A DNA stretch of 64,000 bases from a virus, in the IMG/VR virus record IMGVR_UViG_3300037485_000225, positions 1-64,000 of that record; one strand, written 5' to 3'. Below the pieces are notes generated by a model. The model had not been told where the DNA came from. It saw only the letters and a list, made by a program, of their open reading frames with translations, and made no database searches. Below are positions 3,063 to 64,000 of the stretch, one piece after another (the first letter of the stretch is position 1; each line of letters begins with the position of its first letter). A program made the translations under genes and the position numbers.

Positions 3063-3381
3063 AAAAGCACTTCTTATAGAATATGAGTTGGAGTTTCTAG
3101 AAATGAAACTTCAAGAACTAAAGGAATATATACAGTCTAACCCCTTTTCTTCTTTAGCTGATAGAATGGCTTGGAAGGAAACAAAAGGTGGAGGATCTAT
3201 TCCTATTTGTATTGCTAATAAAGAAGCACAAAGAAAAGACTTGACACAAGCACTTAAAGACTATGCTGAGATTTTACGTACAGTGGATGCTATGAGAGAG
3301 AAAGAAGAGTCTAAAATAGAGGTGAGAGGCAAGGGAGAACTAAGCAGTATGGCTGAAGACTTCCTTAAAAATAGAAAATGA
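3049..3381 (+). CDS. hypothetical protein; by position a candidate small terminase subunit
   Basis: 110-aa charged and coiled ORF immediately upstream of, and overlapping, the large terminase gene. Positional inference only. Confidence 0.35.
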   Translation: MATTKKALLIEYELEFLEMKLQELKEYIQSNPFSSLADRMAWKETKGGGSIPICIANKEAQRKDLTQALKDYAEILRTVDAMREKEESKIEVRGKGELSSMAEDFLKNRK

Positions 3382-7995: not shown

Positions 7996-8526
7996 ATGTT
8001 TGATAAACTAATTGATGTATTGATTGAATGGTGGAATCATGTTCTACCATTCATTATTATCAGAGATTATGAACAAGCTGTACTTCTTAGATTTGGAAGA
8101 TTTAATCAAGTGTTACTGCCAGGTATACACTTTAAGATTCCTTTCTTTGATGAGGTGATAGATCAGCATGTGGTAGTCACAACACTCAGTCTTGATGCTC
8201 AATCTCTATATACTAAAGATAAGCAAAACATTGTTGTAAAAGGACTTGTTAAATATAAGATAGCTGATGTAAAGACTTTCTTATTAGAGGTTTATGATGC
8301 TCAGGATGCTTTATCAGATATGTCTCAAAGTATTATAAAAAATATTATTATGTCTATGACTTTAGAAGAGTGTACAGATTCTGAACTTGATAACACACTT
8401 ACAAAGAAAGTTAGGGTGGAAGCACGGAAGTGGGGGGTTGAAGTTCAACAAGTTACCCTTACAGATCTTGCCCCAATTAGAAGTTATAGGCTTATAAATG
8501 ACAACTTTATCAATAAACTTGATTAG
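7996..8526 (+). CDS. SPFH / band-7 (stomatin-prohibitin-HflK/C-like) domain protein
   Basis: N-terminal hydrophobic segment, then YEQAVLLRFGRF..LLPGIHFKIPFFDEV..VVVTTLSLDAQSLYTKDKQNIVVKGLVKYKI.D, which matches the SPFH core E.A..FRLGR...GpG....P..d......r....d.p.q...TKDnv.v.vd.vv.yrv. Confidence 0.75.
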   Translation: MFDKLIDVLIEWWNHVLPFIIIRDYEQAVLLRFGRFNQVLLPGIHFKIPFFDEVIDQHVVVTTLSLDAQSLYTKDKQNIVVKGLVKYKIADVKTFLLEVYDAQDALSDMSQSIIKNIIMSMTLEECTDSELDNTLTKKVRVEARKWGVEVQQVTLTDLAPIRSYRLINDNFINKLD

Positions 8527-9940: not shown

Positions 9941-11494
9941 ATGGCAATTCAAACAATTCCAGGTTTAACTGGTTTTACCTATGCTAGAGTCGCTTCTATG
10001 GATAAGCGTGCTGTAGGTAAATTAACAGATGCTAACCACTTGGAAAGCTTTCACTCTACAGAGCCAGCAGATTATGATAAAAAGATCATAAGCCTGTATA
10101 CCCAAAGCTCTCTTTACAGTAATGATTTCTTAGACATGATTAACAAGTCTACTCCTTACTATATCGATAATAACAGTGATGCTTGGAAGTGGCAGGTACA
10201 AGTTCCTTACAAATTTCCTAAAATCATTGACATCCCTGTAACAACTTTAGAGTTGGACAAACCAGGTATTGATGGTCAAGAGTTTCAATTGATTATTGAC
10301 ACAAACGAATTCTCTAAGAATGCAATCGTTTCTGTTGGTACTCGTCAATATGGACCTCGTTTCTACGTTGTGAAAGATCCTCAACCTTGGAACATGGGAT
10401 ATTTATACACATTTACATTAGTAACTGATAATCCAGTTGTAGACTTTGTAAGCCCTACCTTCTTAAGAATAGGTATTGAGCTTGAATTAGTTGATGCTGC
10501 TATTGGTGAATTTGACCAAGACTTATTAGGTCTTCCTCGTTTAGGTGAGCAAATTACAATGTTTGAATCTTTAGGTTCTGCATATGGTTATGAGCACAAG
10601 ATCACTGAGTGGGCTGATGATAAGATGATGAGAGATGCTTCTGGTAAGCCTTTAGATATTTTGGTTTATGCTCCTCAAAGACGTAACCAATTACCTTTAA
10701 CTCGTAATGATGTTAAATGGGAACCATTTATTGAGTTCTGGATGCGTAAGTCTATGTTAGAATTAAAAGTTAAGCGTATGATCTGGGCTAAACCAGGTAC
10801 CGTTAAAACTAATGGTTCTAAGCAAGAATTAAAAAGAACTTCTGCTGGTGTTTACCACAGAATGAGAAATAACGGTAACTTAGTTCAATACAACCGTGGA
10901 GAATTCACTGCAAACTTGATTCGTTCTGTGTTTGGTGATTTGTTCTACAGACGTGTGGATGTTAAGGATCGTAGAGTTAAAATGTACACTAATGAAGCTG
11001 GATTCGATGTATTCCAACAAGCTTTGAAGAATGACGCTTTAAATTCTGGTTTAACTTTCATGGCTGATTCTGGTAATCGTTACATGCAAGGAGAAGGACA
11101 ACATATCACTTACAACTTTGCATTTGATGCAATGGTTACTCGTGAGACTGGTCGTGTTGAACTTATTCACTTGAAAGAATTAGACTTACCTCAAACTAAC
11201 TTAGAATTTGGACAAAACAAGAAATCAACTCCAGTATTTATGGTGTTTGATGTATCTCCAATGTCTGATGGTTCTATGGTTAACAACATTCGTGAGGTTC
11301 GTATGAAAGGTGCTCCTTCTATGACTTGGGGTTATATCGATGGTACTCGTAGTCACTTAGGCTTTGCTAAGTCTCAAGGTATGAGTTCTGCGAACAAATT
11401 CCCTGGTTATGAGATCTGGATGAAAGATCGTTGTGATGTGTTTATTGAAGATTTGTCTCGTACAGTCTTGATTGAGGAAATACCACAATTCTAA
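9941..11494 (+). CDS. major capsid protein candidate (517 aa)
   Basis: Canonical position after the scaffold gene. A-rich leader. Followed by a cluster of stem-loops. No motif-level proof. Confidence 0.45.
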   Translation: MAIQTIPGLTGFTYARVASMDKRAVGKLTDANHLESFHSTEPADYDKKIISLYTQSSLYSNDFLDMINKSTPYYIDNNSDAWKWQVQVPYKFPKIIDIPVTTLELDKPGIDGQEFQLIIDTNEFSKNAIVSVGTRQYGPRFYVVKDPQPWNMGYLYTFTLVTDNPVVDFVSPTFLRIGIELELVDAAIGEFDQDLLGLPRLGEQITMFESLGSAYGYEHKITEWADDKMMRDASGKPLDILVYAPQRRNQLPLTRNDVKWEPFIEFWMRKSMLELKVKRMIWAKPGTVKTNGSKQELKRTSAGVYHRMRNNGNLVQYNRGEFTANLIRSVFGDLFYRRVDVKDRRVKMYTNEAGFDVFQQALKNDALNSGLTFMADSGNRYMQGEGQHITYNFAFDAMVTRETGRVELIHLKELDLPQTNLEFGQNKKSTPVFMVFDVSPMSDGSMVNNIREVRMKGAPSMTWGYIDGTRSHLGFAKSQGMSSANKFPGYEIWMKDRCDVFIEDLSRTVLIEEIPQF

Positions 11495-11510
11495 GAAATA
11501 TAGAACAAAG

Positions 11511-11638
11511 GTTAGAACTAATGTTCTAAACAGTTCGAGAAGAATTCCCCCCCACTCCTCAAAAGTGGGGGAGTCTTCTCACCAACCCCAGATGGATGAA
11601 TGAAATTAAAACTTTCATTGCATTCCTTTCAATAGGAA
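11511..11638 (+). terminator. cluster of four consecutive stem-loops downstream of the capsid candidate
   Basis: TTAGAAC-taat-GTTCTAA (11512-11529). CCCCCACT-cctcaaa-AGTGGGGG (11549-11571). AATGAAA-ttaaaac-TTTCATT (11599-11619). TTCCT-ttcaat-AGGAA (11623-11638). None has a strong U-tract. Confidence 0.4.
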
Positions 11639-11650
11639 CCATCTGCAAAT

Positions 11651-11677
11651 AAACCAAATAAAAACAACTACATATGG
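11651..11677 (+). promoter_or_regulatory. conserved upstream element AAACCAAATAAAAACAACTACATATGG (copy 2)
   Basis: Matches copy 1 at 8623-8650 in 25 of 27 positions. A partial third copy AAACCAAATATAAAATG lies at 21356-21372 upstream of 21370. Confidence 0.45.
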
Positions 11678-13397: not shown

Positions 13398-14555
13398 ATG
13401 GCAGATTTTTCTCTAACCACGCTCTTTGTTGTCCCAGTAGGTAACACAATCCCTAGCTCTGGATCAACACAAGACTTAACAGCTGGCCAAGTAGGTATCT
13501 ACTTGAACACTTACGCTGCAGCTACTGCAGGTAACGTTGCTGCTGCTCCCTACATTTATGTAGCTCAAGGACGAGTTAACACTTATTTACAAGGTACTAA
13601 ACGCTCAGACAAGATTTCTGGTAAGTTAAGTGCTGGACCAACCAATGTTACTGAATGGTACAAAGTTACTGGTAATCCAGTTGCTGCAAACCAAGTAACT
13701 GAAGTTGGTGATTTCACTGTTAAACCAGGCGAAGTTGTAACTTTGACTTTACGTGCTTTCTCTAGTTACATTAGCACATTGTATTTTAACGGTTTCACAC
13801 GTTCAGTAACTGTGAATGCTCCATGTTTAGCATGTGGTGATAACCCTTGTACAGATGTTGATGTTCCTGCTTTAATTGATGATTTAATCTATCATTTAGA
13901 GTTAAGAGCTCCAGGTAACAACCCTGACAACATTAGCTTTAACACATTCTATCAATTCCAAAGAATTGGTGATGATCAAAATGCTAAGTTAGTTATTAGT
14001 GGTAAACCTTTAACTCAATACGGACAACCGTGTGATGTGGCTGCATTCCCTTGGGAGTACGACCGTATGTGGTTCAGAACCTTCATTTTCTCTGGTCCTG
14101 CAACTACTGCTGACTTTATTGTAACTGATCCTTGTAATCAAGTGGCTCAAGCTGTGATTACACAACGTGCTACATATGTTTCTGGTACTTCTGGTGAGAT
14201 TCAACAATTAGAAAAGAATTTCTATAGTTATCAAGCTGGATATTTGAAGCATTTATATAGAATGGTTGGTTATAACGAAAACTTTGAAAGCTGGGTAACA
14301 GATGGTACAACCTATGATACTTTGTATGTTAAGTTTAACACTTATGACAAATCAGACTACCAATGGGGTGATTACATTCATGAAGATTCTACAGTTATCA
14401 TTGCTATCCCTTCTGGAGATACTCAAGATTTCTTAAACATCTTAACTCCAGCATTAGGTGCTCCAGTTGATGACAGTGGTCCAATTACTTCTACAACTAG
14501 TACTACAACTACTATTTGGCCTAGTACTTCTACAACAACTACTTTGATTCCATAA
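13398..14555 (+). CDS. structural protein with C-terminal poly-Thr tail, followed by a strong terminator
   Basis: 385-aa ORF. C-terminus ITSTTSTTTTIWPSTSTTTTLIP. AAAATAAAACAAAATGGCA leader. Canonical rho-independent terminator directly downstream implies high expression; could be a major tail or decoration protein. Confidence 0.5.
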   Translation: MADFSLTTLFVVPVGNTIPSSGSTQDLTAGQVGIYLNTYAAATAGNVAAAPYIYVAQGRVNTYLQGTKRSDKISGKLSAGPTNVTEWYKVTGNPVAANQVTEVGDFTVKPGEVVTLTLRAFSSYISTLYFNGFTRSVTVNAPCLACGDNPCTDVDVPALIDDLIYHLELRAPGNNPDNISFNTFYQFQRIGDDQNAKLVISGKPLTQYGQPCDVAAFPWEYDRMWFRTFIFSGPATTADFIVTDPCNQVAQAVITQRATYVSGTSGEIQQLEKNFYSYQAGYLKHLYRMVGYNENFESWVTDGTTYDTLYVKFNTYDKSDYQWGDYIHEDSTVIIAIPSGDTQDFLNILTPALGAPVDDSGPITSTTSTTTTIWPSTSTTTTLIP

Positions 14556-14640: not shown

Positions 14641-15198
14641 ATGACTCTAGATTTTTTAGTAATTAATACATTTGACACCAAAACATTAGGTATAGCAGAT
14701 ACATCAATTTATGATACTGATCCTCCTACTGTAAGTGCTCCAACTATGACTATTACTATTCCTGGTTTTAGTCCATCTGTATCTATTCCATTTAATGTGA
14801 ATAGTTTTAATGTATATAATTCTGTTATATTAGGACTTAGTTCTTTTCCTGTATACACTCCTTTACCAGATGGTGTATATTATTTAAAATATTCAGTTGC
14901 TCCTGCTACTACAAATTTTGTAGAGAAAAGTATTATGCGTACTGAACTTATACAAGAAAAGTTTGATGATGCTTTTATGAGACTTGATATGATGGAATGT
15001 GATCTTGCTATCAAGACGCAATCAAAAGTGACATTGAATACTATTTACTATTTGATCCAAGGGTCAATAGCTGCTGCTAATAACTGTGCTGTAGATACAG
15101 CTAATAAGTTATACATACAAGCAGATAATATGTTGAATAATTTTATAAGAAATAATTGTGGATGTTCTGGTAATAATTATCAAATTAATTTCGTTTAA
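14641..15198 (+). CDS. hypothetical protein (185 aa)
   Basis: ORF; Cys cluster at the C-terminus (NNCGCSGNN). Confidence 0.45.
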   Translation: MTLDFLVINTFDTKTLGIADTSIYDTDPPTVSAPTMTITIPGFSPSVSIPFNVNSFNVYNSVILGLSSFPVYTPLPDGVYYLKYSVAPATTNFVEKSIMRTELIQEKFDDAFMRLDMMECDLAIKTQSKVTLNTIYYLIQGSIAAANNCAVDTANKLYIQADNMLNNFIRNNCGCSGNNYQINFV

Positions 15199-15254: not shown

Positions 15255-15578
15255 ATGGCTTATGTTCAGCATGTAATAATGCTGCTAAAAAAGCTGCTCA
15301 AAGAATTAGAAATGTTATCTCCAAGATTAACTGATTGTGTAGCTGATGGTAGCATACCAGCACTACTATTTGATATTGATCAAAAGCTAGCAGACCTAGC
15401 TAATATTCAATATAATAATATTGTATTTTCATTAAATTACTATATCTCTGGAGAAGTGATTGGTGATTTATTACACTATAAACAAATATTAACATATAAA
15501 CTTTGTAACCCAGCATATGGTCAACCTTTTACGGTGAAGATGATTGCTAGCAGAGTTAAAGTTTTAATACATAAATAA
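15255..15578 (+). CDS. hypothetical protein; true start may be the ATG at 15312
   Basis: ORF whose first 80 nt overlap an alternative 44-aa Cys-rich ORF (15200-15334) in another frame. Confidence 0.35.
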   Translation: MAYVQHVIMLLKKLLKELEMLSPRLTDCVADGSIPALLFDIDQKLADLANIQYNNIVFSLNYYISGEVIGDLLHYKQILTYKLCNPAYGQPFTVKMIASRVKVLIHK

Positions 15579-15585
15579 ATATAAA

Positions 15586-16749
15586 ATGTCTTGCGAAAGT
15601 TGTTATAATGGATGTGTTCAGACTGTGTCTGATGAATGTGTTAGATACACAGGGTTAGATGTGCCTGCATTAGGTATTTCTACAGGAGATAGTTTAAAGA
15701 TGGTTGAAGAAGCTATTACTAGTTATCTTGTTCCTTTATTAACAGGAGAAGGAGATAATATCACGCTTACTTCAGGAGATGTATGTGCATTAGTTAGTAG
15801 TTTTCTTTCAGAAGGATTAGTTCATAATTCTAAAGAATGGATCACAGCTCTTTCTAAAACTGCTTGTACTTTACAAGTAGAAGTTCTTGATATACAAGGA
15901 CAAATTAATACTATTGATGCTCCTCTTACAGTGGATTGTTTATCTGGAGTTACATCAACTTCTGGTATTCATGATATTGTACAAGCTATTATTACAAAAC
16001 TTTGTGAAACAGTTGCAGACTTAGAAGCACTAACTCTTGATGTAGAAACTAATTATGTAAAGATTGCTGACTTTGATGCGTTGGTTGCTGCTTATTTAGC
16101 ATCATTACCAGGAGGCTCTACTCAGTATTATCTAAACATGATTCCTTATACAGCTGTAGAATATTATGGTGATATAGATGTTAACTTTGATGGTACAGGT
16201 GCTGGTATATCTGCTAATGGATTTTATAAAATCTATTTATGTAATGGATTAAATGGTACACCTGATAAGAGGGGTAGAGTGGGTGTAGGTGCTATTGCTG
16301 GTGTTCCTGGAGCTCCTTTAGATGCTATAGTTAATCCAACAGCAAGTACGTTTAATCCTGACTATGCTGTATATGATGTAGCTGGTACAAACTCAGTTAC
16401 ATTAATCACTTCACAAATCCCTGCTCACTCACACAGTGCAACAGGAACAACCATTGTTACATTAGGTGATCATTTTCATTATACAGCAGCAGCTAGTGGA
16501 GATATTGATGCTGTTGTTGATGCAACACATGCTGTTGTAAGAGAGATTGCTCTTAGTGGAAATAGTAGTTATAGACTTTCTAATAGTAGTGTTCCTGCAA
16601 GTGTTGGTAAATCTAGTTTAGATAAAAGTAGTGTAACATCTAATATTCCTAATAATGTAAATGTATTAGTAAATAATGCAGGTGGTGGTGGTGCTCACAG
16701 TAATTTACAACCTGTATTAGCTTGTAACTACATAATGTATATTCCTTAA
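15586..16749 (+). CDS. tail fibre protein with phage tail-collar domain and fibre-family N-terminal anchor
   Basis: The C-terminal half carries LNGTPDKRGRVGVG ... TLITSQIPAHSHSA ... NLQPVLACNYIMYIP. These match the tail-collar domain (T4 gp12-type) motifs LPDLRGRF.LG ... MPSHTH ... NMPPYLALNYII. The N-terminus (C..C..Y.G.D...L...D.L) is shared with the collagen-like fibres at 16770 and 58064. Confidence 0.7.
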   Translation: MSCESCYNGCVQTVSDECVRYTGLDVPALGISTGDSLKMVEEAITSYLVPLLTGEGDNITLTSGDVCALVSSFLSEGLVHNSKEWITALSKTACTLQVEVLDIQGQINTIDAPLTVDCLSGVTSTSGIHDIVQAIITKLCETVADLEALTLDVETNYVKIADFDALVAAYLASLPGGSTQYYLNMIPYTAVEYYGDIDVNFDGTGAGISANGFYKIYLCNGLNGTPDKRGRVGVGAIAGVPGAPLDAIVNPTASTFNPDYAVYDVAGTNSVTLITSQIPAHSHSATGTTIVTLGDHFHYTAAASGDIDAVVDATHAVVREIALSGNSSYRLSNSSVPASVGKSSLDKSSVTSNIPNNVNVLVNNAGGGGAHSNLQPVLACNYIMYIP

Positions 16750-16769: not shown

Positions 16770-19466
16770 ATGTCTTGTTTACCTGGAACTCCTTGTTACG
16801 ATGCCTATTATCATCCTAGTGAAAACTGTGGATGTGCTGAATGTCAAACTCTTTCAAGTAGAGTTACCTATGATGGACCCAATCTTCCATGTACAGGAGT
16901 ACATAATGGAGATAATTTAAATTGTGCCCTATCCAAAATAGATGATGCAATATGTTCTGGTTCTAGTGGTGGATCTGGTACATCTGGTACATCTGGTATT
17001 AACGGTTCTTCAGGAACCTCAGCTATATCAGGTACAAGTGGAACATCTGGTACTAATGGAACTAATGGAATTTCTGGAACAAGTGGAACATCTGGTACAT
17101 CTGGTATTAGTGGCAGTAATGGAACAACAGGTACTAGTGGAACTAGTGGTATAAACGGAACTAGTGGTACAAGAGGTACCTCTGGATCTTCTGGTACAAG
17201 TGCTATTAATGGAACAAGTGGAACTAGTGGTATAAATGGAACAAGTGGATCTAGTGGTAGTAGTGCAACAAGTGGTACTACAGGTACTAGCGGTACATCA
17301 GGTATTGATGGAACTAGTGGCATAGATGGAACTAGTGGCACAAGTGGTACTTCTGGAACTAGTGGAACTTCAGGTACAACAGGAACAAGTGGTACTTCAG
17401 GTACAACTGGTGTTGATGGAACTAGTGGAACTTCAGGTACAACAGGAACAAGTGGATCAAGTGGTACAACAGGAACAAGTGGATCAAGTGGTTCATCTAG
17501 TACTTCTGGAACAACTGGTACATCTGGTACTAGTGGTACAACTGGAACAAGTGGTACTTCAGGTACAACAGGTATAGATGGAACTAGTGGAACTAGTGGC
17601 TCTAGTGGGTCATCTAGTACAAGCGGTACTTCAGGAACTTCTGGTACAAGTGGAACATCTGCAAATGATGGCACCTCTGGAACATCAGGAACTAGTGGTA
17701 GCTCTGGAACTAGTGGCACATCTGCCACTTCAGGTACAACAGGTACAAGTGGTACTTCAGGTCTTACTGGAACATCTGGTTCTTCAGGATTAAACGGAGA
17801 TAGATATTATAGCATATCATCTACATCTATACTTATAGGAACTGGATCTAGAACATTAATTATTGGTACAGGATTAGCTTATAGTGTAGCACAAAGTGTT
17901 GTTATAGTTTATGACAGCCTTAATACAATGGAAGGAACTGTTACATCATATAATGCTCTATCAGGACACATGATTGTAAACATAGTTTCATTTACTGGTT
18001 CTGGTACACAATCATCTTGGGAAATAAATTTACTTGGAGCTTCTGGTGGTGATGGTACATCTGGCACTAGTGGAACAACAGGTACTTCTGGAACAACAGG
18101 AACCTCTGGTTCTTCTGGTACAACAGGAACATCAGGTAGTTCAGGTACAACAGGTACAAGTGGAACATCTGGAACTTCAGGTACAAGTGCTATTAATGGA
18201 ACAAGTGGTACATCTGGTACATCTGGTACAAATGGTACAGGTGGAACATCTGGTACTAGTGGTACAGTAGGTACAAGTGGTACAGCTGGTTCTAGTGGAA
18301 CAACAGGAACAAGTGGAACAACAGGTACTTCAGGTACAAGTGGAGCTAATGGAACTAGTGGCACAACAGGTACAAGCGGAACTAGTGGAACTAGTGGTAC
18401 AAGTGGTGTTAATGGTGGAACAGGTACAAGTGGAACTAGTGGTACAAGTGCTATTAATGGAACTAGTGGTACAAGTGCTATTAATGGAACCAGTGGAACC
18501 AGTGGAACCAGTGGAACCAGTGGAACCAGTGGAACCAGTGGAACTAGTGGTACAAGTGGTACAAGTGGTGTCAATGGTGGAACAGGTACAAGTGGAACTA
18601 GTGGTACAAGTGGTGTCAATGGTGGAACAGGTACAAGTGGAACCAGTGGAACTAGTGGTGTCAATGGTTCACCTGGTGGAAGTGGAACCAGTGGAACTAG
18701 TGGTACAAGTGGTGTCAATGGTGGAAGTGGAACTAGTGGAACTAGTGGAACTAGTGGTGTCAATGGTTCACCTGGTGGAAGTGGAACCAGTGGAACTAGT
18801 GGAACTAGTGGTGTCAATGGTGGAAGTGGAACCAGTGGAACTAGTGGTACAAGTGGTGTCAATGGTGGAAGTGGAACTAGTGGAACCAGTGGAACTAGTG
18901 GTGTCAATGGTTCACCTGGTGGAAGTGGAACCAGTGGAACTAGTGGTACAAGTGGTGTCAATGGTGGAAGTGGAACTAGTGGAACTAGTGGAACTAGTGG
19001 TGTCAATGGTTCACCTGGTGGAAGTGGAACTAGTGGAACTAGTGGAACTAGTGGTGTCAACGGTTCACCTGGTGGAAGTGGAACTAGTGGAACTAGTGGT
19101 ACTTCAGGTACATCTCCTTCAGCAGCAGCTTATGTTCCATACACAGGAGCTACAGGAAATGTTGATATAGGATCTACTCATTCAATGACTGCAGGTTCTT
19201 TTTATGAAAGTTCAGATATAAGATTTAAAAATGTAATTGAAACAAATCCATCTATAGATTTACCATTAGATGTAATTAAGTTTACAAGAACAGATGATGA
19301 TAGTAACGCAATTAGATATGGTTATTCTGCACAACAAGTACAATCAGTGCTTCCAGATGCAGTCTCAGGTGATGAAAAATTATCTGTAAATTATATGGAT
19401 GTGCATACATTAAAAATTGCAGCTCTAGAAAAACGTATTGCTGAACTTGAAGCTAAATTAAAATAA
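16770..19466 (+). CDS. collagen-like (Gly-X-Y) tail fibre with C-terminal S74-type intramolecular chaperone/autoprotease domain
   Basis: Hundreds of G-T-S/G-x-y triplets, interrupted once by an ~85-aa globular domain (17800-18055). The C-terminus carries [10 protein letters not shown] ... [15 protein letters not shown], matching the Peptidase_S74/CIMCD hallmark SD.RLK.NI ... G.IAQEVQ.VLPE.V of endosialidase-type tailspikes. Confidence 0.85.
18400..19100 (+). repeat. in-frame tandem repeat array (39-57-nt units encoding [13 protein letters not shown]-(G/S-P)-G-(T/G-S)) inside the fibre gene
   Basis: About 12 near-identical units (ggtgtcaatggtggaagtggaactagtggaactagtggaactagt and variants) seen directly. 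Length is a multiple of 3 and the array lies within the collagen frame. Confidence 0.75.
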
Positions 19467-21346
19467 TGAAAGCTAATAATTATTTAATAACAGTTACTGA
19501 ATTAAAAACAATGGGGTATATTCCAGTAGAAAGTATACCTCCTGATAGTAACTTAATTGTATCTAAAGCTACTGCTAATACTTTTTATTATATACCTTAT
19601 GCAGAGCCTTGGAATAGTCTTACTAATGATAGATGTCCTAAATATCAAGACTTTCCAATTTCTTGTTATTCTTATGCTACAGTTGCAAATACACTAGAAG
19701 GTAATCCAGATCCTGTTTTTATATCATATCAAGATTGTTCTGGTAACTTTATTTATAGTAGTGTTCCTTTTGGACAAGCATTGATAATAAATCAATGTTA
19801 TTATGTTTCAGGAGATTCTGGACCAATGACTGGATGTGGTATTTTAGCTAACAGTATATATGCTCCTGGTTGTGAAATAACTTATTCTACTAGATGTGAT
19901 ATTCCTACATCAGAATGTACTACTACTACTTCTACAACTAGTACAACTACTACATTACCTCCTGTTGATTGTTATGTTGTACAAGGATATGTTGATGGTG
20001 CTGATTTAAACCATTCATATAACTTTGAAGTTTGTTTTGATTGGTATGATTGTGAGGGAAGTTCATTTCCATATAGTTATTGTACAAGTAGTGAAGGTGG
20101 ATTTACACTTCCTAGTAATTGTTATAATCCAACATCAATATACGGTGCTCCTTTTGCTTATATTTATGAATATCCAGGTGGTCCAAAAGTTGCAGCTGAT
20201 TATTCTTATATAGATGGATATACTCCTTGTAGTGGAACAACAACAACCACAACTACACAACCTCCTGGTTGTGTTGTGCCAAATTTACCAGTGACTCTTT
20301 ATTCTATAAATAGATATGTATATCCTAATTTATTTAGTAGACTTTATCCTTATAACTCAGCAGATGGAGGTAGATCTTGGACTATATTACCTTGTGTAAG
20401 TAGTTTACCTGATATTGATTTTCGTATGATTTCTACTAGTTATGATGGTACATATATATTATTAGCAGGAAAGTTTCCAACAACACAACTTGTTTCTAGA
20501 TATATGTATATATCTACTGATGGAGGAAATACAATAAGTGCAGGAAGAGATATTTACCAAGAACTTACAGGAACTCAAGGATATATTACAGCAGTTGCTG
20601 TTTCTGGAAATGGTCAATACATGGCTATGTTTGCTGGTAGCGGTGTAACGGGAGAGTCATTGTATAAGCTAATAGTTTCCTCAGACTATGGTGTTAATTG
20701 GAGTATAAGATATAGTGTTGCTAATGAAGGAGGAACAGCATATTCACCAAGAGGGATAGCTATATCTAACGATGGTCAATATATAACAGGATGTATATAT
20801 GGGACTGGACTATTTGCAGGCGAAACAAAATCTAAAAGAATTTATTCTTCAAATTATGGAACTTCTTTTACTCTTTCAGGAGGTACCAATCTACAAGACT
20901 TTTCAGATATAGCATTTTCATCTAGTGGACAATATCAAGTTATAGCATCACTAGTAGGTAACACTAATGGTAGAGTTCTTCTAAGTACAAACTATGGTGC
21001 TAATTGGACTGAGAAAGTTTTTATGGTAAATTATGAATTATCTGCAATTGCAATAACTGATAATGGAAGTAATATATTTGCATCAGGTTCTACTGGAGGC
21101 TATACTTTTTCAAAAGATTATGGATCTACTTTTGAAGCACATTATTTTCCACAAACATCAATTACTGGACTAACTATGTCAAATTCATTAATTGGATCTG
21201 ATACATTAGTAACTCTGTATATTGCTGCAGCTACTAATTATCCAGCTACTCAAATAGCTTATTTTAGTGATACAGGAGGTAGCTATTGGTGTGGAGCTTA
21301 TATAAATTCTTTAGTTAATTCTGCTCAATCAAGAGGAAATATATAA
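19466..21346 (+). CDS. tail protein with BNR/Asp-box beta-propeller (sialidase-like fold) and poly-Thr linkers
   Basis: Six Asp-box-like repeats S-x-D-x-G-x-(T/S)-(W/F/I): SADGGRSWT, STDGGNTIS, SSDYGVNWS, SSNYGTSFT, STNYGANWT, SKDYGSTFE. Poly-Thr linkers TTTSTTSTTTTLPP and SGTTTTTTTQPPG. Start overlaps the stop of 16770. Confidence 0.6.
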   Translation: MKANNYLITVTELKTMGYIPVESIPPDSNLIVSKATANTFYYIPYAEPWNSLTNDRCPKYQDFPISCYSYATVANTLEGNPDPVFISYQDCSGNFIYSSVPFGQALIINQCYYVSGDSGPMTGCGILANSIYAPGCEITYSTRCDIPTSECTTTTSTTSTTTTLPPVDCYVVQGYVDGADLNHSYNFEVCFDWYDCEGSSFPYSYCTSSEGGFTLPSNCYNPTSIYGAPFAYIYEYPGGPKVAADYSYIDGYTPCSGTTTTTTTQPPGCVVPNLPVTLYSINRYVYPNLFSRLYPYNSADGGRSWTILPCVSSLPDIDFRMISTSYDGTYILLAGKFPTTQLVSRYMYISTDGGNTISAGRDIYQELTGTQGYITAVAVSGNGQYMAMFAGSGVTGESLYKLIVSSDYGVNWSIRYSVANEGGTAYSPRGIAISNDGQYITGCIYGTGLFAGETKSKRIYSSNYGTSFTLSGGTNLQDFSDIAFSSSGQYQVIASLVGNTNGRVLLSTNYGANWTEKVFMVNYELSAIAITDNGSNIFASGSTGGYTFSKDYGSTFEAHYFPQTSITGLTMSNSLIGSDTLVTLYIAAATNYPATQIAYFSDTGGSYWCGAYINSLVNSAQSRGNI

Positions 21347-22074: not shown

Positions 22075-23325
22075 ATGTCTGAAAACCAATCTCTTTTAGA
22101 ACAGCTTGAGCAAATGTTGCATTGGAAAAAATCAAAAACATACTATGCTGCAAAGCTAGGAGTTACAGAGTCTGAGGTTGATGACTTGCTTGTAGATTTA
22201 AGAAATCGAGAAAAGGTTGAAGATGATGCAGAGATTGGAAACTATATATCTGAGTTAGAGAATACAGTGGTTAAGTTCACTGAAGATATGGTAAAGGGTA
22301 CAGGAGAGATTGTAGTTAATGTTAAAGAAGAAATTAGAAGTCTAGAGGATCTTATAGAGAAGTGTAAAATAGACACAACAAAGTGGGATATAACTAAATA
22401 TGTACAGAATTTCTGGGGTAATGAAGATAATCCTCGATGGCAAGTAAAAGCCTGGTTAGGAAAAAAGTCTACAGAGCAAGTCTTCCAAGACTATTTTGTA
22501 GACTTTTTAGCTTCATATGAGCCTGTAAGTCAAACAGTTATGGGTCCTAAGTTTGTTCCAAGTAAGTCACATGCATGCTTAGTTATTAACAAACAAGACT
22601 CACATTTGAATAAGTTTGATGTAGATGGGAATAATGATATAGAAGATAGATTTGCTAGAATGATGTTTAAAACAGAGACTATTATAACTCAAGCTCAACT
22701 ATCTAACAATCTAGACCACATTGTTTATATCATTGGTTCTGATGAGTTTAATAGTGAACATACCAATAACACTACAAAAGGAACTCCTCAACAGAATATA
22801 CATACATATCATGAGGGATTCCTTAAGATATGTAACCATGAGATTCTTGTAATTACAATGTTATTACAATATGCTACAAATGTTAGTGTAGTGTATGTAG
22901 CAGGTAATCATGATGAATATGTAGGTTGGCATATGGTTAATTGGTTACAAACCTATTTTAGAAAAGAAGAAAGAGCTGATTTCAACATCAGCCCTAAATA
23001 TAGAAAATACATAGGATATGGTAATTCAGCATTGATGTTCAACCATGGAGATGCTATTAAGCCTGCAAAGCTTGCTGGTATATTCCCAATGGAGTTTAAG
23101 GACAATTGGTCTAGTTATGATAACTTCTATATATTCACAGGAGATAAACACCATGAGGTGAGTCACGATTTTAATGGTATTAAATTTTACCAAATTCCAG
23201 CATTCTCTAATGCTAAAAGTCTTTGGGATGATAAGAATGGTCACGTAATGTCTAAAGCAGAAGTGACAGCATTCTTGATAGATGAGAATGATGGAATGAC
23301 AAATATATTCAAACAGTATTTATAA
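22075..23325 (+). CDS. putative calcineurin-like metallophosphoesterase family protein
   Basis: VVYVAGNHDEY (GNHD, metallophosphatase motif III) with downstream FNHGD and GDKHH His-containing motifs. Motifs I and II are degenerate, so the call is tentative. Confidence 0.4.
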   Translation: MSENQSLLEQLEQMLHWKKSKTYYAAKLGVTESEVDDLLVDLRNREKVEDDAEIGNYISELENTVVKFTEDMVKGTGEIVVNVKEEIRSLEDLIEKCKIDTTKWDITKYVQNFWGNEDNPRWQVKAWLGKKSTEQVFQDYFVDFLASYEPVSQTVMGPKFVPSKSHACLVINKQDSHLNKFDVDGNNDIEDRFARMMFKTETIITQAQLSNNLDHIVYIIGSDEFNSEHTNNTTKGTPQQNIHTYHEGFLKICNHEILVITMLLQYATNVSVVYVAGNHDEYVGWHMVNWLQTYFRKEERADFNISPKYRKYIGYGNSALMFNHGDAIKPAKLAGIFPMEFKDNWSSYDNFYIFTGDKHHEVSHDFNGIKFYQIPAFSNAKSLWDDKNGHVMSKAEVTAFLIDENDGMTNIFKQYL

Positions 23326-58063: not shown

Positions 58064-61000
58064 ATGAATGTCACTTGCTCAGCAACCCCATGTCCAGTTA
58101 TATTAGATTCGACCTGCGTATTTTACGAAGGTTCTTATCTTGTATACACAGGTATTGATACAAATGATAATTTACAAACAGCTTTACAAAAGATTGATGC
58201 TGCATTTGCTGATGTTAGTGGAACATCTGGAACTTCTGGTACTAGTGGTGTGTCTGGATCTTCTGGTACATCTGGAATAAATGGTACATCAGGTGATGAT
58301 GGAACTTCTGGTACTAGTGGTATAAATGGAACAAGTGGAACAAGTGGTTCTAGTGGAGCTAATGGTTCTTCTGGAACTTCAGGAACAAGAGGAACTTCAG
58401 GTACTAGTGGAGCAAATGGTACAAATGGAACTAGTGGAGCAAATGGTACAAACGGAACATCAGGAACAAGTGGAGCAGTAGGAGGAGATGGTACAAGTGG
58501 TACTAGTGGAACAAGAGGTACGTCAGGAACTTCAGGGTCTAGCGGTACAACTGGTACAAGTGGTACAAGGGGAACTAGTGGAACTAGTGGATCAAGTGGA
58601 ACAACAGGTACTAGTGGTACTTCTGCAACAGCAGGTACATCTGGATCTAGTGGTTTACAAGGTGATAGATATGCTACAACTTCTACAACATTATTTACTT
58701 TAGGTAATGCTGGTACAATCACAGTGGGTACTACATTAGCTTACACACCAGGTCAAACTGTTGTAATAGCTTATGATGCTACAAACTATCAAGAAAGTAC
58801 TGTAATTGCATATAATAGCGGAACAGGATCTTTACAATTTAGTGCACCTATCAACACAGTTGGTAGTGGAGCATATGCTGATTGGAGTGTTAACTTGGCA
58901 GGAGCAAGTGGAGGAGATGGTACATCTGGTACTTCTGGTTCAACAGGAACTAGTGGTACATCAGGATCTACTGGAACTTCAGGAACAACTGGTACAAGTG
59001 GTTCTTCTGGAACCTCTGCAACTAGTGGTTCATCAGGAACTAGTGGTAGCACAGGAACTTCAGGTTCTTCTGGTACTGACGGTTCTTCTGGAACTACTGG
59101 TACATCTGGCACATCAGGAACAACTGGTGTAGATGGTACATCAGGAACAACTGGTACATCTGGCACTTCTGGAACAACAGGAACTAGTGGAACTAGTGCT
59201 AATGATGGTACAAGTGGTACTTCAGGAATAGACGGTACTTCAGGTACATCTGGAACAGACGGAACTAGTGGTACAACAGGAACTTCTGGTACATCTGGTA
59301 CTGATGGAACTAGTGGTACAACAGGAACTTCTGGTTCTTCTGGCTCTAGTGCAACCTCTGGAACATCTGGTACAACTGGAACTAGTGGTACAAGTGGATC
59401 TAGTGGTAGTAGTGCAACAAGTGGTACTACAGGTACAAGTGGTACATCAGGTATTGATGGAACTAATGGTACAAGTGGAACTTCAGGTACATCTGCTACA
59501 TCAGGCACAAGTGGTTCTGATGGAACAAGTGGGACCTCTGGTACTAGTGGTATAGATGGAACTTCTGGCACAAGTGGAATAGATGGAACTTCTGGCACTG
59601 ATGGTACTTCAGGTACTGATGGAACTTCTGGAAGTGATGGTACATCAGGTACAAGTGGTACAAGCGGTACAAGTGGTACAAGCGGTACAAGTGCAACTGA
59701 TGGTACAAGTGGTACAAGTGGTACTGACGGTACAAGTGGAACAAGTGGTACTGACGGAACATCTGGAACTAGTGGAATAGATGGTACAAGTGGAACTAGT
59801 GCAATAGATGGTACATCTGGTACTGCTGGAACTTCAGGTACAACAGGTACTTCTGGAACTAGTGGAACCAATGGTACTGATGGAACGTCAGGTACTGATG
59901 GTAGCAGTGGAACAGCTGGTACAAGTGGTACTTCTGGAACTAGTGGTACAACTGGTACAAGTGGTACAAGTGCAACTGATGGAACGTCAGGTACAAGCGG
60001 TACAACTGGAACTAGTGGTACTTCAGGAACAACTGGAACTAGCGGAACGTCTGGTACAACAGGTACAAGCGGAACATCTGGAACAGATGGTACTTCAGGT
60101 ACTGCAGGTACTTCAGGTATTCAAGGAGACATATATGCTTCTTCTTCTACTGATAGTTTAACAATAGGATTAGGTGTACAAAATTTAACAATAGGAACAG
60201 GCTTAGCTTATACAGTTGGTCAAACTGCATTAGTTGCATATGACGCAAGTAATAGCATGGTAGGTACTGTTCTTTCATATAATAGCGGAACTGGTGCTTT
60301 CTCAATAGATGTATATGACTTCTTAGGAGGTGGTACATATTCTACATGGGCAGTTAACTTAGCTGGTGCATCTGGTGGTGATGGTAGCTCAGGATCTAGT
60401 GGTACAAGTGGAATAGATGGAACATCTGGTACAAGTGGTACTAGTGGTACTTCAGGAACAACTGGTACTAGTGGTACAAGTGGAACCACTGGAACAAGTG
60501 GTACTTCTGGAACTTCAGGTACAAGTGGAACAAGTGCTACAGATGGTACTAGTGGTACAAGTGGTACAACAGGCACAAGTGGAACATCAGGCACTACAGG
60601 AACAAGTGGTACTAGTGGTACAAGTGGTACATCTGGTACATCTGGTACAAGTGGTACAGACGGAACTTCTGGTACAAGTGGTACAGACGGAACTTCTGGT
60701 ACAACTGGAACCTCAGGAACCAGTGGATCTACAGGTACTAGTGGTACAAGTGGTACTTCAGGTACAACGGGAACTTCTGGAACTTCTGGAACAAGTGGTA
60801 TTAATGGTGTGTCAACTAATTTATTTTTATACGAAGCTGATGCAAACACTTTTTCGGGCGCACCTTCAAGTGGACATATTCTTTGGAATAATGCCACACA
60901 AATAAGTGCTACCCAAATAAATATAAATCACTTAACAGATACCCCGATAACAGATATTGATATATTTTTATCTTTATTACAAACAGGACAAAAGTTAACA

Positions 61001-61921
61001 ATACAAGACAGAAGTAATTCAGCTAATTACCAAATATGGACAATTAGCGCTACTCCTACTTATGTCCCTACAACTTATTGGACTATACCTGTTACATTGG
61101 TATCTTCAGCAGGAACGGGAACAACAGGGTTTGCTAATAACCATCCAATATTTGTAGCTACATCTGCTTTTAGTGGAACGAGTGGAACAACGGGTACTTC
61201 TGGTACAAGTGGCACTGGAACTAGTGGTACATCTGGTACAACTGGAACTTCTGGAACTACAGGTACAAGTGGTACATCAGGTACTTCAGCTACAGATGGA
61301 ACTAGTGGTACAACTGGTACTAGCGGTACATCAGGCACTAGTGGTACAAGTGGAACATCAGCAACTGATGGAACAAGTGGTACTTCTGGCACCACAGGAA
61401 CTTCTGGAACAAGTGGAACATCTGGTTCAAGTGGTACAGCAGGTACAACAGGTACTTCAGGTACAAGTGGAACTGATGGCACAAGTGGAACAGCTGGTAC
61501 ATCTGGAACCTCAGGATCTAGTGGTACAACTGGAACAAGTGGAACAGCTGGAACAGCTGGTACAGCAGGTACAAGTGGTACATCTTGTGGATTATGTGGA
61601 ACAAGTGGAAATACAATTACTATTCCTTCTACTCCTGCTACAACTACTACAACTACAACAGCTGGTCCTGTGGTATATACAATTGATTCATTTGGAACAG
61701 GTAGTGCCTTTGATGCTTGTACTACTGGAAGTCCAACAATCACTGTATATGCATTACCAGGTTATACAACACCTATTGTTGGCATGATTCTTTATGATAG
61801 TTCAAGTTTAACAACTCCTTATATTGGTGGAGCAGGTTGGAGAAAATTAATACAAGGTGCTACAAGTTATGCAGCAGAAGTAGATATTAATGGAGAAATT
61901 ACAAACTATTCAGCTTGTTAA
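58064..61921 (+). CDS. collagen-like tail fibre (1285 aa) with two interruption domains, a second globular domain and a Cys-containing C-terminal domain
   Basis: N-terminus (C..C...C.FYEG...YTG.D.ND.LQ.ALQKID.A) is homologous to the N-termini of 15586 and 16770. Long G-T-S/G-x-y runs. Interruption domains at 58661-58920 and 60125-60384. Non-collagen segment 60800-61190. C-terminal SCGLCG...poly-T...Cys domain. Confidence 0.8.
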
Positions 61922-61947: not shown

Positions 61948-63660
61948 ATGCCTTACGCTAATATTACCATAACTACCAATACAGATTTATCGTTTATAAC
62001 TGGACAATTTATCCAGCTTATAGCAGATAGTGATAACTATATTTTTGGTCAAATAGTTTCATACAATCCTGGTACTGGTTCATTAACTTTTACACCAACT
62101 AAAGAAGTTGGTAGTGGTAGTTACAGTACTTGGAACATAGTTGCCTCTGGTTCAGCTGGTGATGATGGTACAAGTGGTACTGCAGGAACATCTGGTACAA
62201 CAGGTACAAGTGGAACTACAGGTACCTCTGGAACAAGTGCTACTTCTGGTACTACTGGTACAAGCGGTACATCTGCTACAAGTGGAACAAGTGGATCTAC
62301 AGGAACATCTGGTTCTAGTGGTACATCAGGTACAGACGGTACATCAGGTACAACTGGTACTTCAGGAACTACTGGAACTTCTGGTTCTAGTGGAACTACT
62401 GGTACATCAGGTACATCAGGTAGTGATGGTACTAGTGGAACTTCAGGTACCTCAGGTACTAGTGGAACTACTGGTACAAGTGGTAGCTCAGGTAACTCAG
62501 GTGATAAGTATGCTACTACATCAACAACATCTTTTACTTTAGGTAATGCAGGAACATTAACAGTAGATACACTACTTGCTTATACACCAGCTCAATCTAT
62601 TATTGTTGTATATGATGCAAGTAATTATCAAGAGTGTGAGGTTATAAGTTATAACCCAGGAACAGGTGCTTTACAATTTGCTGCCCCTACTAGAACAATA
62701 GGTAGTGGTACATATATAAGCTGGGCAGTAAACTTGGATGGTGCTTCAGGAGGTGATGGTTCTTCAGGATCATCTGGTACTTCTGGATCATCTGCAACAA
62801 GTGGTACCTCTGGTACAAGTGGTGCTGATGGATCTAACGGTACATCAGGCACTTCTGGAACTACAGGTACTAGTGGAACTACTGGTACAAGTGGAACAGA
62901 TGGTACATCAGGTACTTCTGGTACAAGTGGAACAAGTGCTACAAGTGGAACTTCAGGTACCACTGGAACATCTGGAACTAGTGGAACATCTGCAACTAGT
63001 GGAACATCAGGTACAACTGGTACATCTGGTACAAGTGCTATTGATGGCACAAATGGTACCTCTGGAACTAGTGGAACCTCTGGTACAACTGGTACATCAG
63101 GTAGTTCTGGAACTAGTGGTACAAGTGCAACTTCTGGAACTTCTGGAACAACTGGCACAAGTGGTACAAGTGGTATTGATGGTACAAGTGGATCAAATGG
63201 TACATCTGGTAGTAGTGGATTAGGTTCAGAAACTATTCAAGCTTGTAGTACAGCAGGTACAGCAGGTACATTTGGTACATCAGGTACATCAGGTATAGCT
63301 ATTGATCTTATTAATGAAGCACAATATGTTGGTGCAGTTTATAACTATAATATAAATGATGGAACAAATTTCCAAACAGGAATTCTTGTAGTTGCTTGGA
63401 ATAACATATCAAATGAAGTGGTTATAACACAAGCTGCCCAAGCTACAATTGGAACAGTGACTGCATATTTCTTTGCAAAGCTTACAGGCGGTAATGTAGT
63501 ATTATCTCTTATAACAAACAATACTACAACTTTATGGAATGTTGTATTAACTAAGACAACCCTTCTTGATTGTGGTGGTTATATTCCTGAATCATTTATA
63601 GTGACAGAAGATAACAACTTTATAATAACTGAAAATGATAACTTTATCATAACTGAATAA
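61948..63660 (+). CDS. collagen-like fibre (570 aa) that begins with an interruption-type domain and ends in a globular C-terminal domain
   Basis: The N-terminal 75 aa (..LAY-like ...YNPGTGSLTF...GSGSYSTWNIVASGSAGDDG) is homologous to the internal interruption domain, which recurs at 62502-62760. G-T-S repeats. C-terminal domain ends in ITEDNNFIITENDNFIITE. Confidence 0.75.
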   Translation: MPYANITITTNTDLSFITGQFIQLIADSDNYIFGQIVSYNPGTGSLTFTPTKEVGSGSYSTWNIVASGSAGDDGTSGTAGTSGTTGTSGTTGTSGTSATSGTTGTSGTSATSGTSGSTGTSGSSGTSGTDGTSGTTGTSGTTGTSGSSGTTGTSGTSGSDGTSGTSGTSGTSGTTGTSGSSGNSGDKYATTSTTSFTLGNAGTLTVDTLLAYTPAQSIIVVYDASNYQECEVISYNPGTGALQFAAPTRTIGSGTYISWAVNLDGASGGDGSSGSSGTSGSSATSGTSGTSGADGSNGTSGTSGTTGTSGTTGTSGTDGTSGTSGTSGTSATSGTSGTTGTSGTSGTSATSGTSGTTGTSGTSAIDGTNGTSGTSGTSGTTGTSGSSGTSGTSATSGTSGTTGTSGTSGIDGTSGSNGTSGSSGLGSETIQACSTAGTAGTFGTSGTSGIAIDLINEAQYVGAVYNYNINDGTNFQTGILVVAWNNISNEVVITQAAQATIGTVTAYFFAKLTGGNVVLSLITNNTTTLWNVVLTKTTLLDCGGYIPESFIVTEDNNFIITENDNFIITE

Positions 63661-63665
63661 TAAAT

Positions 63666-63694
63666 ATAAAATATAAAATATAAAATATAAAAAT
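63666..63694. repeat. 7-bp tandem repeat (ATAAAAT)x4 immediately upstream of the last fibre gene
   Basis: ataaaat ataaaat ataaaat ataaaaat read directly between the stop at 63660 and the ATG at 63696. Confidence 0.6.
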
Positions 63695-63695
63695 A

Positions 63696-64000
63696 TGTCA
63701 AACGTAAAAATATCACAATTACCCAATCTAGCATCTGTAGAAGGAAGTAGTTTAGTTCCTGTTGTTCAGGATGGTGTTACGTATTCAACAACTGTTTCTA
63801 ACATAGGTACATTTGGTTCTAGTGGTACATCTGGTACATCTGGTACATCTGGTACAAGTGGTACATCTGGTACATCTGGTACAAGTGGTACAGACGGAAC
63901 TTCTGGTACTAGTGGTACATCAGGTACTGATGGAACTTCTGGAAGTGATGGTACATCAGGTACTAGTGGTACAAGTGGAACAAGTGGTACTGACGGTACT
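63696..64000 (+). CDS. collagen-like fibre protein, N-terminal fragment (continues beyond the window)
   Basis: [40 protein letters not shown], then [13 protein letters not shown]... through the window end. The ISQLP...PVVQ.G N-terminus is a recurring tail-fibre N-terminal motif, recalled rather than verified. Confidence 0.65.

Follow-up and report, generated by a model that had tools for sequence, protein, structure and literature searches.

The window analysed here, a stretch of 64,000 nucleotides (positions 1 to 64,000 of the IMG/VR virus record IMGVR_UViG_3300037485_000225), encodes five fibre proteins on the + strand, in open reading frames (ORFs) that start at 15586, 16770, 58064, 61948, and 63695. 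Four of the five genes carry collagen-like tracts, which are very long in three, and fibres 1-3 have in common, at the N-terminus, an anchor of ~35-50 residues that contains Cys and is homologous in all three. Taken together, the findings point to a reading that is probable, if well short of certain: a crAss-like podophage fibre set that is docked in the tail collar, is displayed together, and exchanges its distal modules. The Cys anchors of fibres 1-3 would plug trimers into tail-collar sockets built by the products of g14641 and g15255, and this docking would parallel that of the gp22 N-terminus in the THA2-THB hubs of crAss001. Behind the anchor, fibres 2 and 3 would continue as long trimeric, proline-free (Gly-Thr-Ser)n collagen-like stalks, divided by 77-residue beta-barrel nodes and ending in differing distal modules. 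In fibres 2 and 5, the S74 chaperone would bring the trimer into register before releasing itself by cleavage. Having no anchor, fibres 4 and 5 probably ride on the anchored fibres or occupy other sites. Over evolution the anchor would stay fixed, distal parts would be swapped, and collagen tracts would lengthen or shorten, with the repetitive collagen DNA as the crossover site.

A first-pass annotation of the window had proposed that the N-termini of 15586, 16770, and 58064 are homologous, and this survives formal alignment statistics. With BLASTP, the anchors of 16770 and 58064 align at E=3e-8 (47% identity over 34 residues), those of 15586 and 16770 at 7e-5, and those of 15586 and 58064 at 3e-3. 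In a non-circular version of the comparison, hidden Markov models (HMMs) were built from relatives' anchors of one type only and run on the window proteins of the other type. The HMM for slot 1 (the position of fibre 1, fibre 2 being in slot 2) matches g58064 (1.3e-4), g16770 (2.1e-4), and no other ORF of the window; the reverse HMM matches g15586 (1.3e-4). Alignment of the two anchor profiles with hhalign gives 97% probability and E=7e-11 over 51 columns, with the consensus C..C...C....C(V/I).Y.G..L...G(I/V)..GD.L...L.KID. An AlphaFold2 model of g15586 has a predicted local distance difference test (pLDDT) score of 75-93 over residues 10-110, where short strands are followed by a helix over 'D.L..AL.KID'; its mean pLDDT is 57 and its C-terminal half is of low confidence. 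A Foldseek search of the PDB with this model returned chance matches only (E>1), and no fold is assigned to the anchor. No Pfam family covers the anchor, tblastn against 50,697 phage records (crAss001 included) gives no match for it, and by sequence it appears to be a new anchor family. Its slot-1 and slot-2 subtypes are ~35% identical, and each is kept at its own position across relatives. In distant relatives a 129-residue anchor-only protein (MRTAAICPTCATYENAKCIIYNG...) is encoded directly upstream of a long anchored collagen fibre (L157-L170, ~11240-11660); this small protein might plug the socket used by the fibres or serve as an adaptor for it.

What follows the anchor differs from gene to gene. 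Fibre 1 (387 residues; 15586..16749, +) has its anchor in residues 1-50 (nucleotides 15586-15735), followed by a helical repeat region and a tail-fibre or collar-like C-terminus (phrog_8469, 4e-16); as originally described, it shares the family's anchor and has no collagen triplets. Fibre 2 (898 residues; 16770..19466, +) consists of the anchor (16770-16958), collagen tracts of 94 triplets (16959-17804) and 120 triplets (18036-19115) on either side of a 77-residue beta insert domain (17805-18035), and a short tip plus S74 intramolecular chaperone with the motif S-D-I-R-F-K (19116-19463). In fibre 3 (1285 residues; 58064..61921, +), the anchor (58064-58219) is followed by four collagen tracts (58220-58669, 58901-60133, 60365-60814, and 61175-61585), two insert domains (58670-58900 and 60134-60364), a second-type domain of 120 residues (60815-61174), and a poly-Thr linker with a Cys-bounded knob (61586-61918). 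Fibre 4 (570 residues; 61948..63660, +) is without a Cys anchor and starts with a truncated insert domain (61948-62148), after which come collagen (62149-62508 and 62740-63300) interrupted by an insert domain (62509-62739) and a C-terminal domain with no family assigned (63301-63657). Only the 5' end of fibre 5 lies in the window (63695..64000, +); the gene runs beyond the window end onto the source contig, which is identical to the window over 12 kb and gives a full length of 1056 residues. Its N-terminus is unlike the others, and is followed by 29 triplets, ~800 residues of Cys/Gly-rich GGxxNxAsGxxS repeats, and an S74 chaperone.

Some features of fibres 4 and 5 stand apart. The fibre 5 repeats (residues ~125-940, L173:11748-14918), of the form GGxxNxAsGxxSxxxGG, resemble by eye the head repeats of trimeric autotransporter adhesins, and the region has no Pfam match; a related region, 33-35% identical, occurs in a 2299-residue anchored fibre of a relative (L158). 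A likeness by eye of the fibre 5 N-terminus to crAss001 gp22 residues 27-55 (..G....V..VQ.G..) gave no alignment with BLASTP and was dropped. Within 63595-63694, the 3' end of fibre 4 has a 24-nucleotide tandem repeat that codes (E)DNNFIITE twice, followed by an AT-rich (ATATAAA)n intergenic spacer ahead of fibre 5.

The four collagen-bearing genes named in the first-pass annotation exist on the + strand and match Pfam Collagen (PF01391) at 1e-68 (16770), 6e-102 (58064), 2e-33 (61948), and 2e-9 (63695), with 227, 334, 114, and 38 bits against a gathering cut-off of 27.2; the last of them starts at 63695, not at 63696, and has just its 29 triplets at full length. Counted strictly, the tracts contain 582 Gly-X-Y triplets, 342 GTS, 58 GTT, and 43 GSS among them, and the dominance of GTS and GTT noticed at first sight is borne out. 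A relaxed count, which permits a single Ala or Ser at the Gly position, gives 624 in-register triplets over the four ORFs, with a longest tract of 137 triplets. In these 624 triplets, the X position is Thr in 77%, Pro in 0%, and charged in 1%, and the Y position is Ser in 69%, Pro in 0.8%, and charged in 9.5%. Gly is replaced at 29 positions, by Ala or Ser only, and the short interruptions keep the three-residue register in all but one case, as predicted by a packing constraint at every third residue. The DNA is scrambled at the codon level: 348 GTS triplets are spelled by 31 different 9-mers, with near independent codon choice, and perfect 9-mer runs do not exceed 6 copies. Selection thus acts at the level of the protein and not of a repeated DNA unit, and the repeats are no recent DNA expansion. 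The exception is the youngest tandem array, at 18440-19100 in fibre 2, with a period of 99/144 nucleotides and 85% matches.

Repetitive DNA assembles poorly from short reads, and long repeats might be artefacts of metagenome assembly, collapsed or chimeric, which would make the gene lengths and numbers unreliable. For this window such an explanation is highly improbable. The second contig that is identical over 12 kb includes fibres 3-5, which makes misassembly unlikely; the codon scrambling, with its short perfect runs, also speaks against it, as do the intact orthologous ORFs in dozens of relatives.

Most of the modules that interrupt and terminate the stalks are without a Pfam family. There are five copies of the 77-residue non-collagen insert domain (one in fibre 2, two in fibre 3, and two in fibre 4, where the N-terminal copy is truncated), and the copies are 35-52% identical to the first. 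The domain is modelled confidently as a 7-strand beta domain (pLDDT 82). Searched exhaustively with HMMER, the domain turns up in 6,301 representative clusters, 1,814 of them at E<=1e-10, with up to 12 matched stretches per protein, and 125 of the 149 top representatives have Thr/Ser-rich collagen tracts. The insert domain, the 120-residue domain, the knob, and the fibre 4 C-terminus have no Pfam family at E up to 10. The 120-residue domain of fibre 3 is 61% identical to part of gp23 of Methylophilaceae phage P19250A, and thus appears from its sequence to be a fibre domain common to unrelated aquatic phages; its presence in both could hint at a common host or receptor, and Methylophilaceae would on that ground be candidate hosts of the window phage alongside aquatic Bacteroidota. 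P19250A gp23 (KX815270; L175:2336-5941) is labelled 'tail length tape-measure protein' and is itself a 1201-residue (Gly-Tyr/Phe/Ile-Ser)n collagen-like fibre; the label looks like a misannotation.

Three kinds of C-terminus (tail collar, S74 chaperone, and Cys-containing knob) had been named from the sequence, and they fared differently. Peptidase_S74 (PF13884) is found in fibre 2 when the C-terminus alone is scanned (23.7 bits against a cut-off of 22; the whole protein, at 18.2 bits, falls below) and in full-length fibre 5 (49.4 bits, 5.5e-13). The S-D-x-R-x-K motif reads SDIRFK in the translation of g16770 and SDCRLK in that of fibre 5. With its Ser and Lys five residues apart, this motif is the presumed S74 cleavage site, as in the K1F endosialidase. 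The knob of g58064 is visible in the sequence and belongs to no family. The tail collar of g15586 was not substantiated: even with E up to 10, Pfam has no Collar match for it, and searching by fold was equally negative. Support is indirect: orthologues of g15586 bear the JGI name 'microcystin-dependent protein', a label that goes with the tail-collar COG (COG4675, corresponding to PF07484), and g15586 itself matches a PHROG labelled tail fibre.

Comparison across metagenomic relatives uncovered the swapping of fibre parts that had been suspected. In 76 relatives the major capsid protein (MCP) is 95-99% identical, neighbouring structural genes have medians of 63-85%, orthologues of g15586 fall to 41-58%, and g16770 is not alignable over its full length; such a drop is the usual mark of a receptor-binding slot that varies strongly while the backbone round it is conserved. 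With a local HMM of the anchor, 308 anchor-bearing ORFs were identified in 172 related loci, as a rule in adjacent pairs. The fibre in slot 1 is always of the g15586 type. In slot 2, the anchor is joined either to collagen or to unrelated non-collagen modules of 80-821 residues; the collagen versions have 44-307 triplets in 330-2318 residues, with an S74-type end in 44 of 55. Relatives of the distal cluster have anchor-plus-collagen fibres of 622-2318 residues. Among 98 unique complete non-slot-1 anchor proteins, 55 have collagen and 43 do not. Seven pairs have anchors that are 90-100% identical and C-termini that are less than 35% identical, as expected if one anchor is placed on different distal ends. 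In ten pairs the ends are at least 95% identical and the triplet numbers differ. One breakpoint was mapped within a collagen tract: in L001 and L002 the anchor and first collagen tract are near-identical, the insert domain is still similar, and divergence begins inside the second collagen tract. Collagen repeats are described as recombination hotspots and host-range determinants in Streptococcus thermophilus phages and a virophage (PMC5601072, PMC7242381), and the mosaicism seen here agrees with that view. The formation of chimeras by recombination, which the first-pass annotation expected DNA similarity between the paralogues to allow, is supported by these comparisons.

PHROG and Pfam scans, together with gene order, identify the window as the virion module of an uncultured, deeply divergent crAss-like phage, with all long ORFs on the + strand. 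The crAss-type capsid, ring, and muzzle proteins are present in canonical order, colinear with crAss001 gp31-gp44. The scans place the terminase at 3378-5414 (+), a P22-like portal at 5414-7993 (+), and the Crassvirus MCP at 9941-11494 (+; PF23898, Crass_capsid, 1e-26); the ring proteins (+) match in Pfam as R3/4 (weak), CrAss_Ring_2 (2e-14), and CrAss_Ring_1 (2e-6), and the Crassvirus muzzle protein lies at 25522-30558 (+; crAss_MUZ, 3e-35), with giant cargo-like ORFs of up to 4387 residues (+) after it. A comparison of 8.8 kb of the window with 50,697 phage genomes yielded no megablast match, and the nearest isolate by capsid protein, Leptolyngbya phage Lbo-JY46, is 26% identical only. A capsid protein that is 95-99% identical is encoded on more than 599 IMG/VR contigs; the lineage is common in metagenomes though uncultured and far from any isolate.

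By synteny with crAss001, the fibre cassette is inserted between the THB-position gene and Ring 2. The positional equivalent of THA (gp38) is g14641 (185 residues; 14641..15198, +), which matches phrog_31752 (virion structural protein) and has conserved Cys; that of THB (gp39, 114 residues) is, by synteny only, g15255 (107 residues; 15255..15578, +). The genes of fibres 1 and 2 directly follow these two and precede Ring 2. In crAss001, the first 26 residues of the tail fibre gp22 trimer are held in each of twelve THA2-THB hubs round the tail barrel, gp22 in turn carries other fibre proteins that have no such segment, and disulfides cross-link the hub region (PMC10172136). Given the position of the anchored fibre genes right after the hub-position genes, we infer that the anchors dock trimers into the tail collar, which by analogy with crAss001 would be the likeliest mechanism. 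PDB sequence searches with g13398, g14641, g15255, and g15586 returned nothing meaningful.

Several points weigh against the reading of collar-docked, collagen-stalked, and exchangeable fibres. The tracts lack the composition of a stabilised collagen, which would be rich in Pro/hydroxyproline or in charges, and on host-guest peptide scales Thr at X and Ser at Y are poor triple-helix formers. Formation of a stable triple helix from (Gly-Thr-Ser)n is the main uncertainty, and an unmodified helix may be only marginal. Recombination among the paralogues of this genome is possible and has left no recent trace: their collagen DNA does show the similarity that had been claimed, at 65-82% identity, but this is modest, and the longest exact matches are 21-60 nucleotides, so that nothing points to gene conversion among them in recent times. 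By inspection, the anchor has no sequence similarity to crAss001 gp22 residues 1-26; hhalign finds no match between g15255 and crAss001 gp39, and its alignment of g14641 with gp38, at E=0.0037, is weak, with a probability of 9%. Lastly, crAss001 has trimeric fibres that are docked by their N-termini on the head.

These trimeric head fibres of crAss001, like its dimeric ones, have their N-termini in hexon pockets of a capsid with an outer diameter of 88 nm (PMC10172136). Anchors could sit in such pockets as the first 38 residues of crAss001 gp21 do, with the stalks forming a capsid 'hair' for first contact or adhesion; three anchor subtypes could fit different capsomer environments, and the poly-Thr tail of the AUX-position protein g13398 hints at decoration of the capsid surface. 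However, the fibre genes are not neighbours of the capsid genes but have the hub-position genes on one side and Ring 2 on the other, the S74 chaperones and PHROG matches are those of tail fibres, and the 'microcystin-dependent protein' label of the orthologues is a tail-collar one. A location on the head is unlikely.

If the anchors dock in the collar, all three might vie for a single class of socket, each virion then carrying a random mixture or one of several alternative fibre sets, as bet-hedging rather than as a fixed architecture. The homology of all three anchors and the twelve equivalent hubs of crAss001 would fit such competition. The slot-1 and slot-2 subtypes, however, are each conserved at their own position, are only ~35% identical to each other, and are co-encoded in 133 of 169 loci. 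Nor did any element for inversion or switching come to light: the clusters and their surroundings have neither a reverse transcriptase nor a gene on the minus strand, as a diversity-generating retroelement or an invertible switch might show, although no dedicated search for such elements was made. Competition for one socket class is improbable on this evidence. Because each slot has its own anchor subtype and the two are almost constantly encoded together, co-display is likelier than alternative display; of the two arrangements first envisaged, the fibres are most likely displayed together and not as alternatives.

At 0.29 nm per collagen residue (PMC8968730), the stalks of fibres 2 and 3 would be ~186 nm and ~245 nm long if fully helical. 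The predicted stalks are two to three times the 88-nm capsid diameter of crAss001, a length that would be unusual for a podovirus. Whether they are helical bears on a different explanation of the tracts, in which (GTS)n is a flexible, heavily O-glycosylated (and possibly sulfated or methylated) mucin-like spacer or a polyglycine-II-type bundle. Pro at 0-0.8%, few charges, and Thr/Ser of low helix propensity would suit such a spacer, in contrast to typical bacterial collagens, which have Pro at X and Thr at Y (PMC8968730); so would the poly-Thr linkers in several virion proteins, and the cluster right behind the fibre genes, which codes for a sulfotransferase, APS kinase, FkbM methyltransferase, and glycosyltransferases. 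A mucin-like spacer, however, has no need of a Gly in each third position over as many as 137 triplets, replaced only by Ala or Ser and with interruptions that keep the register. In addition, the tracts are flanked by trimer-specific S74 chaperones and match Pfam Collagen with E down to 1e-102, and a triple helix does not preclude glycosylation, BclA having both (PMC8968730). A spacer of this kind is therefore doubtful; a triple helix is favoured by how strictly the register is kept, by the replacement of Gly with nothing but Ala or Ser, and by flanking domains that are specific to trimers.

The downstream enzymes are the most interesting loose end. Their cluster, right after fibre 5 on the source contig (L173:15109-20042, 3.4-8.4 kb past the window end), encodes in order a GT9-like protein, a sulfotransferase (7e-14), an FkbM methyltransferase (2e-15), an APS kinase (2.5e-10), an HxGH nucleotidyltransferase (cytidylyltransferase-like), and, convergently, a 544-residue GT1+GT9 fusion. 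Sulfotransferase, GT9-like, and APS-kinase genes also follow a fibre gene in the relative L158, and in six relatives the gene for the large glycosyltransferase is a neighbour of the fibre cluster. The product of these enzymes may be a glycan, sulfated or methylated, destined for the virion or the host surface. Poly-Thr or Ser-Thr linkers are found in virion proteins at window positions 14490-14555, 19900-19960, 20230-20260, and 61630-61660: TSTTSTTTTIWPSTSTTTTLIP at the C-terminus of g13398, TTTSTTSTTTTLPP and TTTTTTTQPP in g19466, and one in g58064; some relatives have MPEDTTTTTTTSTTS ahead of the slot-1 anchor. These linkers look like known O-glycosylation tails. The cluster and the linkers together suggest that the phage encodes enzymes to glycosylate or sulfate its virion; glycosylated BclA and the virion glycosylation of mycobacteriophages are known parallels. 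A further step is speculative and quite unlikely: that the downstream enzymes O-glycosylate the stalks and poly-Thr linkers and sulfate and/or methylate the glycans, and that this modification stabilises an otherwise marginal helix. If true, a crAss-like podovirus would bear sulfated, glycosylated fibres 100-250 nm long. No phage is known to have such a virion chemistry.

Other genes of the window deserve mention. A 626-residue protein (19466-21346), whose gene overlaps the fibre 2 stop codon, has Cys-rich modules joined by the poly-Thr linkers mentioned above, and weakly shows a BNR/sortilin beta-propeller signature. Only 12 of 76 relatives have this protein, which places it in the variable cassette, and it may be a glycan-binding or glycan-cleaving tip. 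The g58064 knob has no significant similarity to the Cys-rich modules of this protein. The MCP is unusually conserved compared with its neighbours (3378-25507) in the 76 relatives, in which it is 95-99% identical, the terminase and portal ~84%, and other structural proteins 63-85% (medians). Between the portal and capsid genes is a gene for an SPFH/Band 7 domain protein (7996-8526; PF01145, 4e-28), which is unusual in a phage head module, and an SbcD-like 'DNA repair exonuclease' (22075-23325; phrog_704, 9e-42) is encoded amid the tail genes, after the fibre cassette and before Ring 2. A single 4387-residue ORF (39753-52916) occupies the position of the crAss cargo or virion-RNA-polymerase genes; its sole match is phrog_10774 (unknown function), in the last 180 residues, and PHROG scans of the giant downstream proteins gave nothing relevant.

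Host recognition by crAss-like phages is little understood, and the comparison of relatives shows the apparatus of this lineage to be a cassette system with fixed anchors, exchangeable tips, and variable stalk lengths. The analysis also yields resources: an anchor motif with which fibre genes can be found in related genomes, an unnamed 77-residue collagen-interrupting beta domain that occurs in more than 6,000 protein clusters and merits a family entry, and natural proline-free Gly-Thr-Ser collagens of over 100 triplets that are test cases for triple-helix stability. Modular, collagen-stalked phage fibres with conserved attachment ends are a long-known theme, and current ideas are not overturned. 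What is notable here is the apparently new anchor family, the widespread unnamed insert domain, the extreme proline-free composition, the predicted stalk length, and the presence of five fibre genes in one genome.

Known systems resemble parts of this arrangement. P19250A gp23 is likewise a proline-poor Gly-X-Ser collagen-like fibre, of 1201 residues, with the same 120-residue inserted domain; it differs in having Tyr, Phe, or Ile at X and no Cys anchor, and its 39-kb phage is unrelated to crAss-like phages. K1F endosialidase and T5 pb1 (Peptidase_S74) share with fibres 2 and 5 the S-D-x-R-x-K motif and a C-terminal PF13884 domain, which would imply trimer-dependent self-cleavage; in fibre 2, in contrast, the chaperone follows a collagen stalk and the mature tip would be only ~30 residues. 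In BclA of the Bacillus anthracis exosporium, the number of triplets is polymorphic and sets the length of the filament. BclA, too, combines a Thr-rich collagen-like stalk with a C-terminal trimeric domain, and its stalk is O-glycosylated (PMC8968730); it is a bacterial protein, however, with Gly-Pro-Thr triplets (Pro at X, Thr at Y), and for the phage fibres glycosylation is hypothetical. The E. coli O157:H7 prophage fibres (PMC3368898) have collagen between a phage-fibre N-terminal domain and varied C-termini, and several paralogues per genome, but their flanking domains are others and their collagen is short and of conventional bacterial composition. In the antireceptors of S. thermophilus phages (Duplessis and Moineau 2001, as cited in PMC5601072 and PMC7242381), collagen-like repeats flank the host-range region VR2, and changes there alter host range; such repeats separate receptor-binding protein domains and are regarded as recombination hotspots, but they are short and belong to siphoviruses of Gram-positive hosts, whereas the window phage has tracts of up to 137 triplets, four paralogues, and a Gly-Thr-Ser composition. 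The closest counterpart in layout is crAss001 (PMC10172136), which has the same gene order round the hub, ring, and muzzle genes. Its gp22 trimer is held by a short N-terminal segment in a disulfide-stabilised collar, and an analogous attachment is what we infer for the window phage. The crAss001 fibres are without collagen and their genes lie by the portal gene, whereas the window phage has three anchor paralogues, with fibre genes both after the hub-position genes and after the cargo genes.

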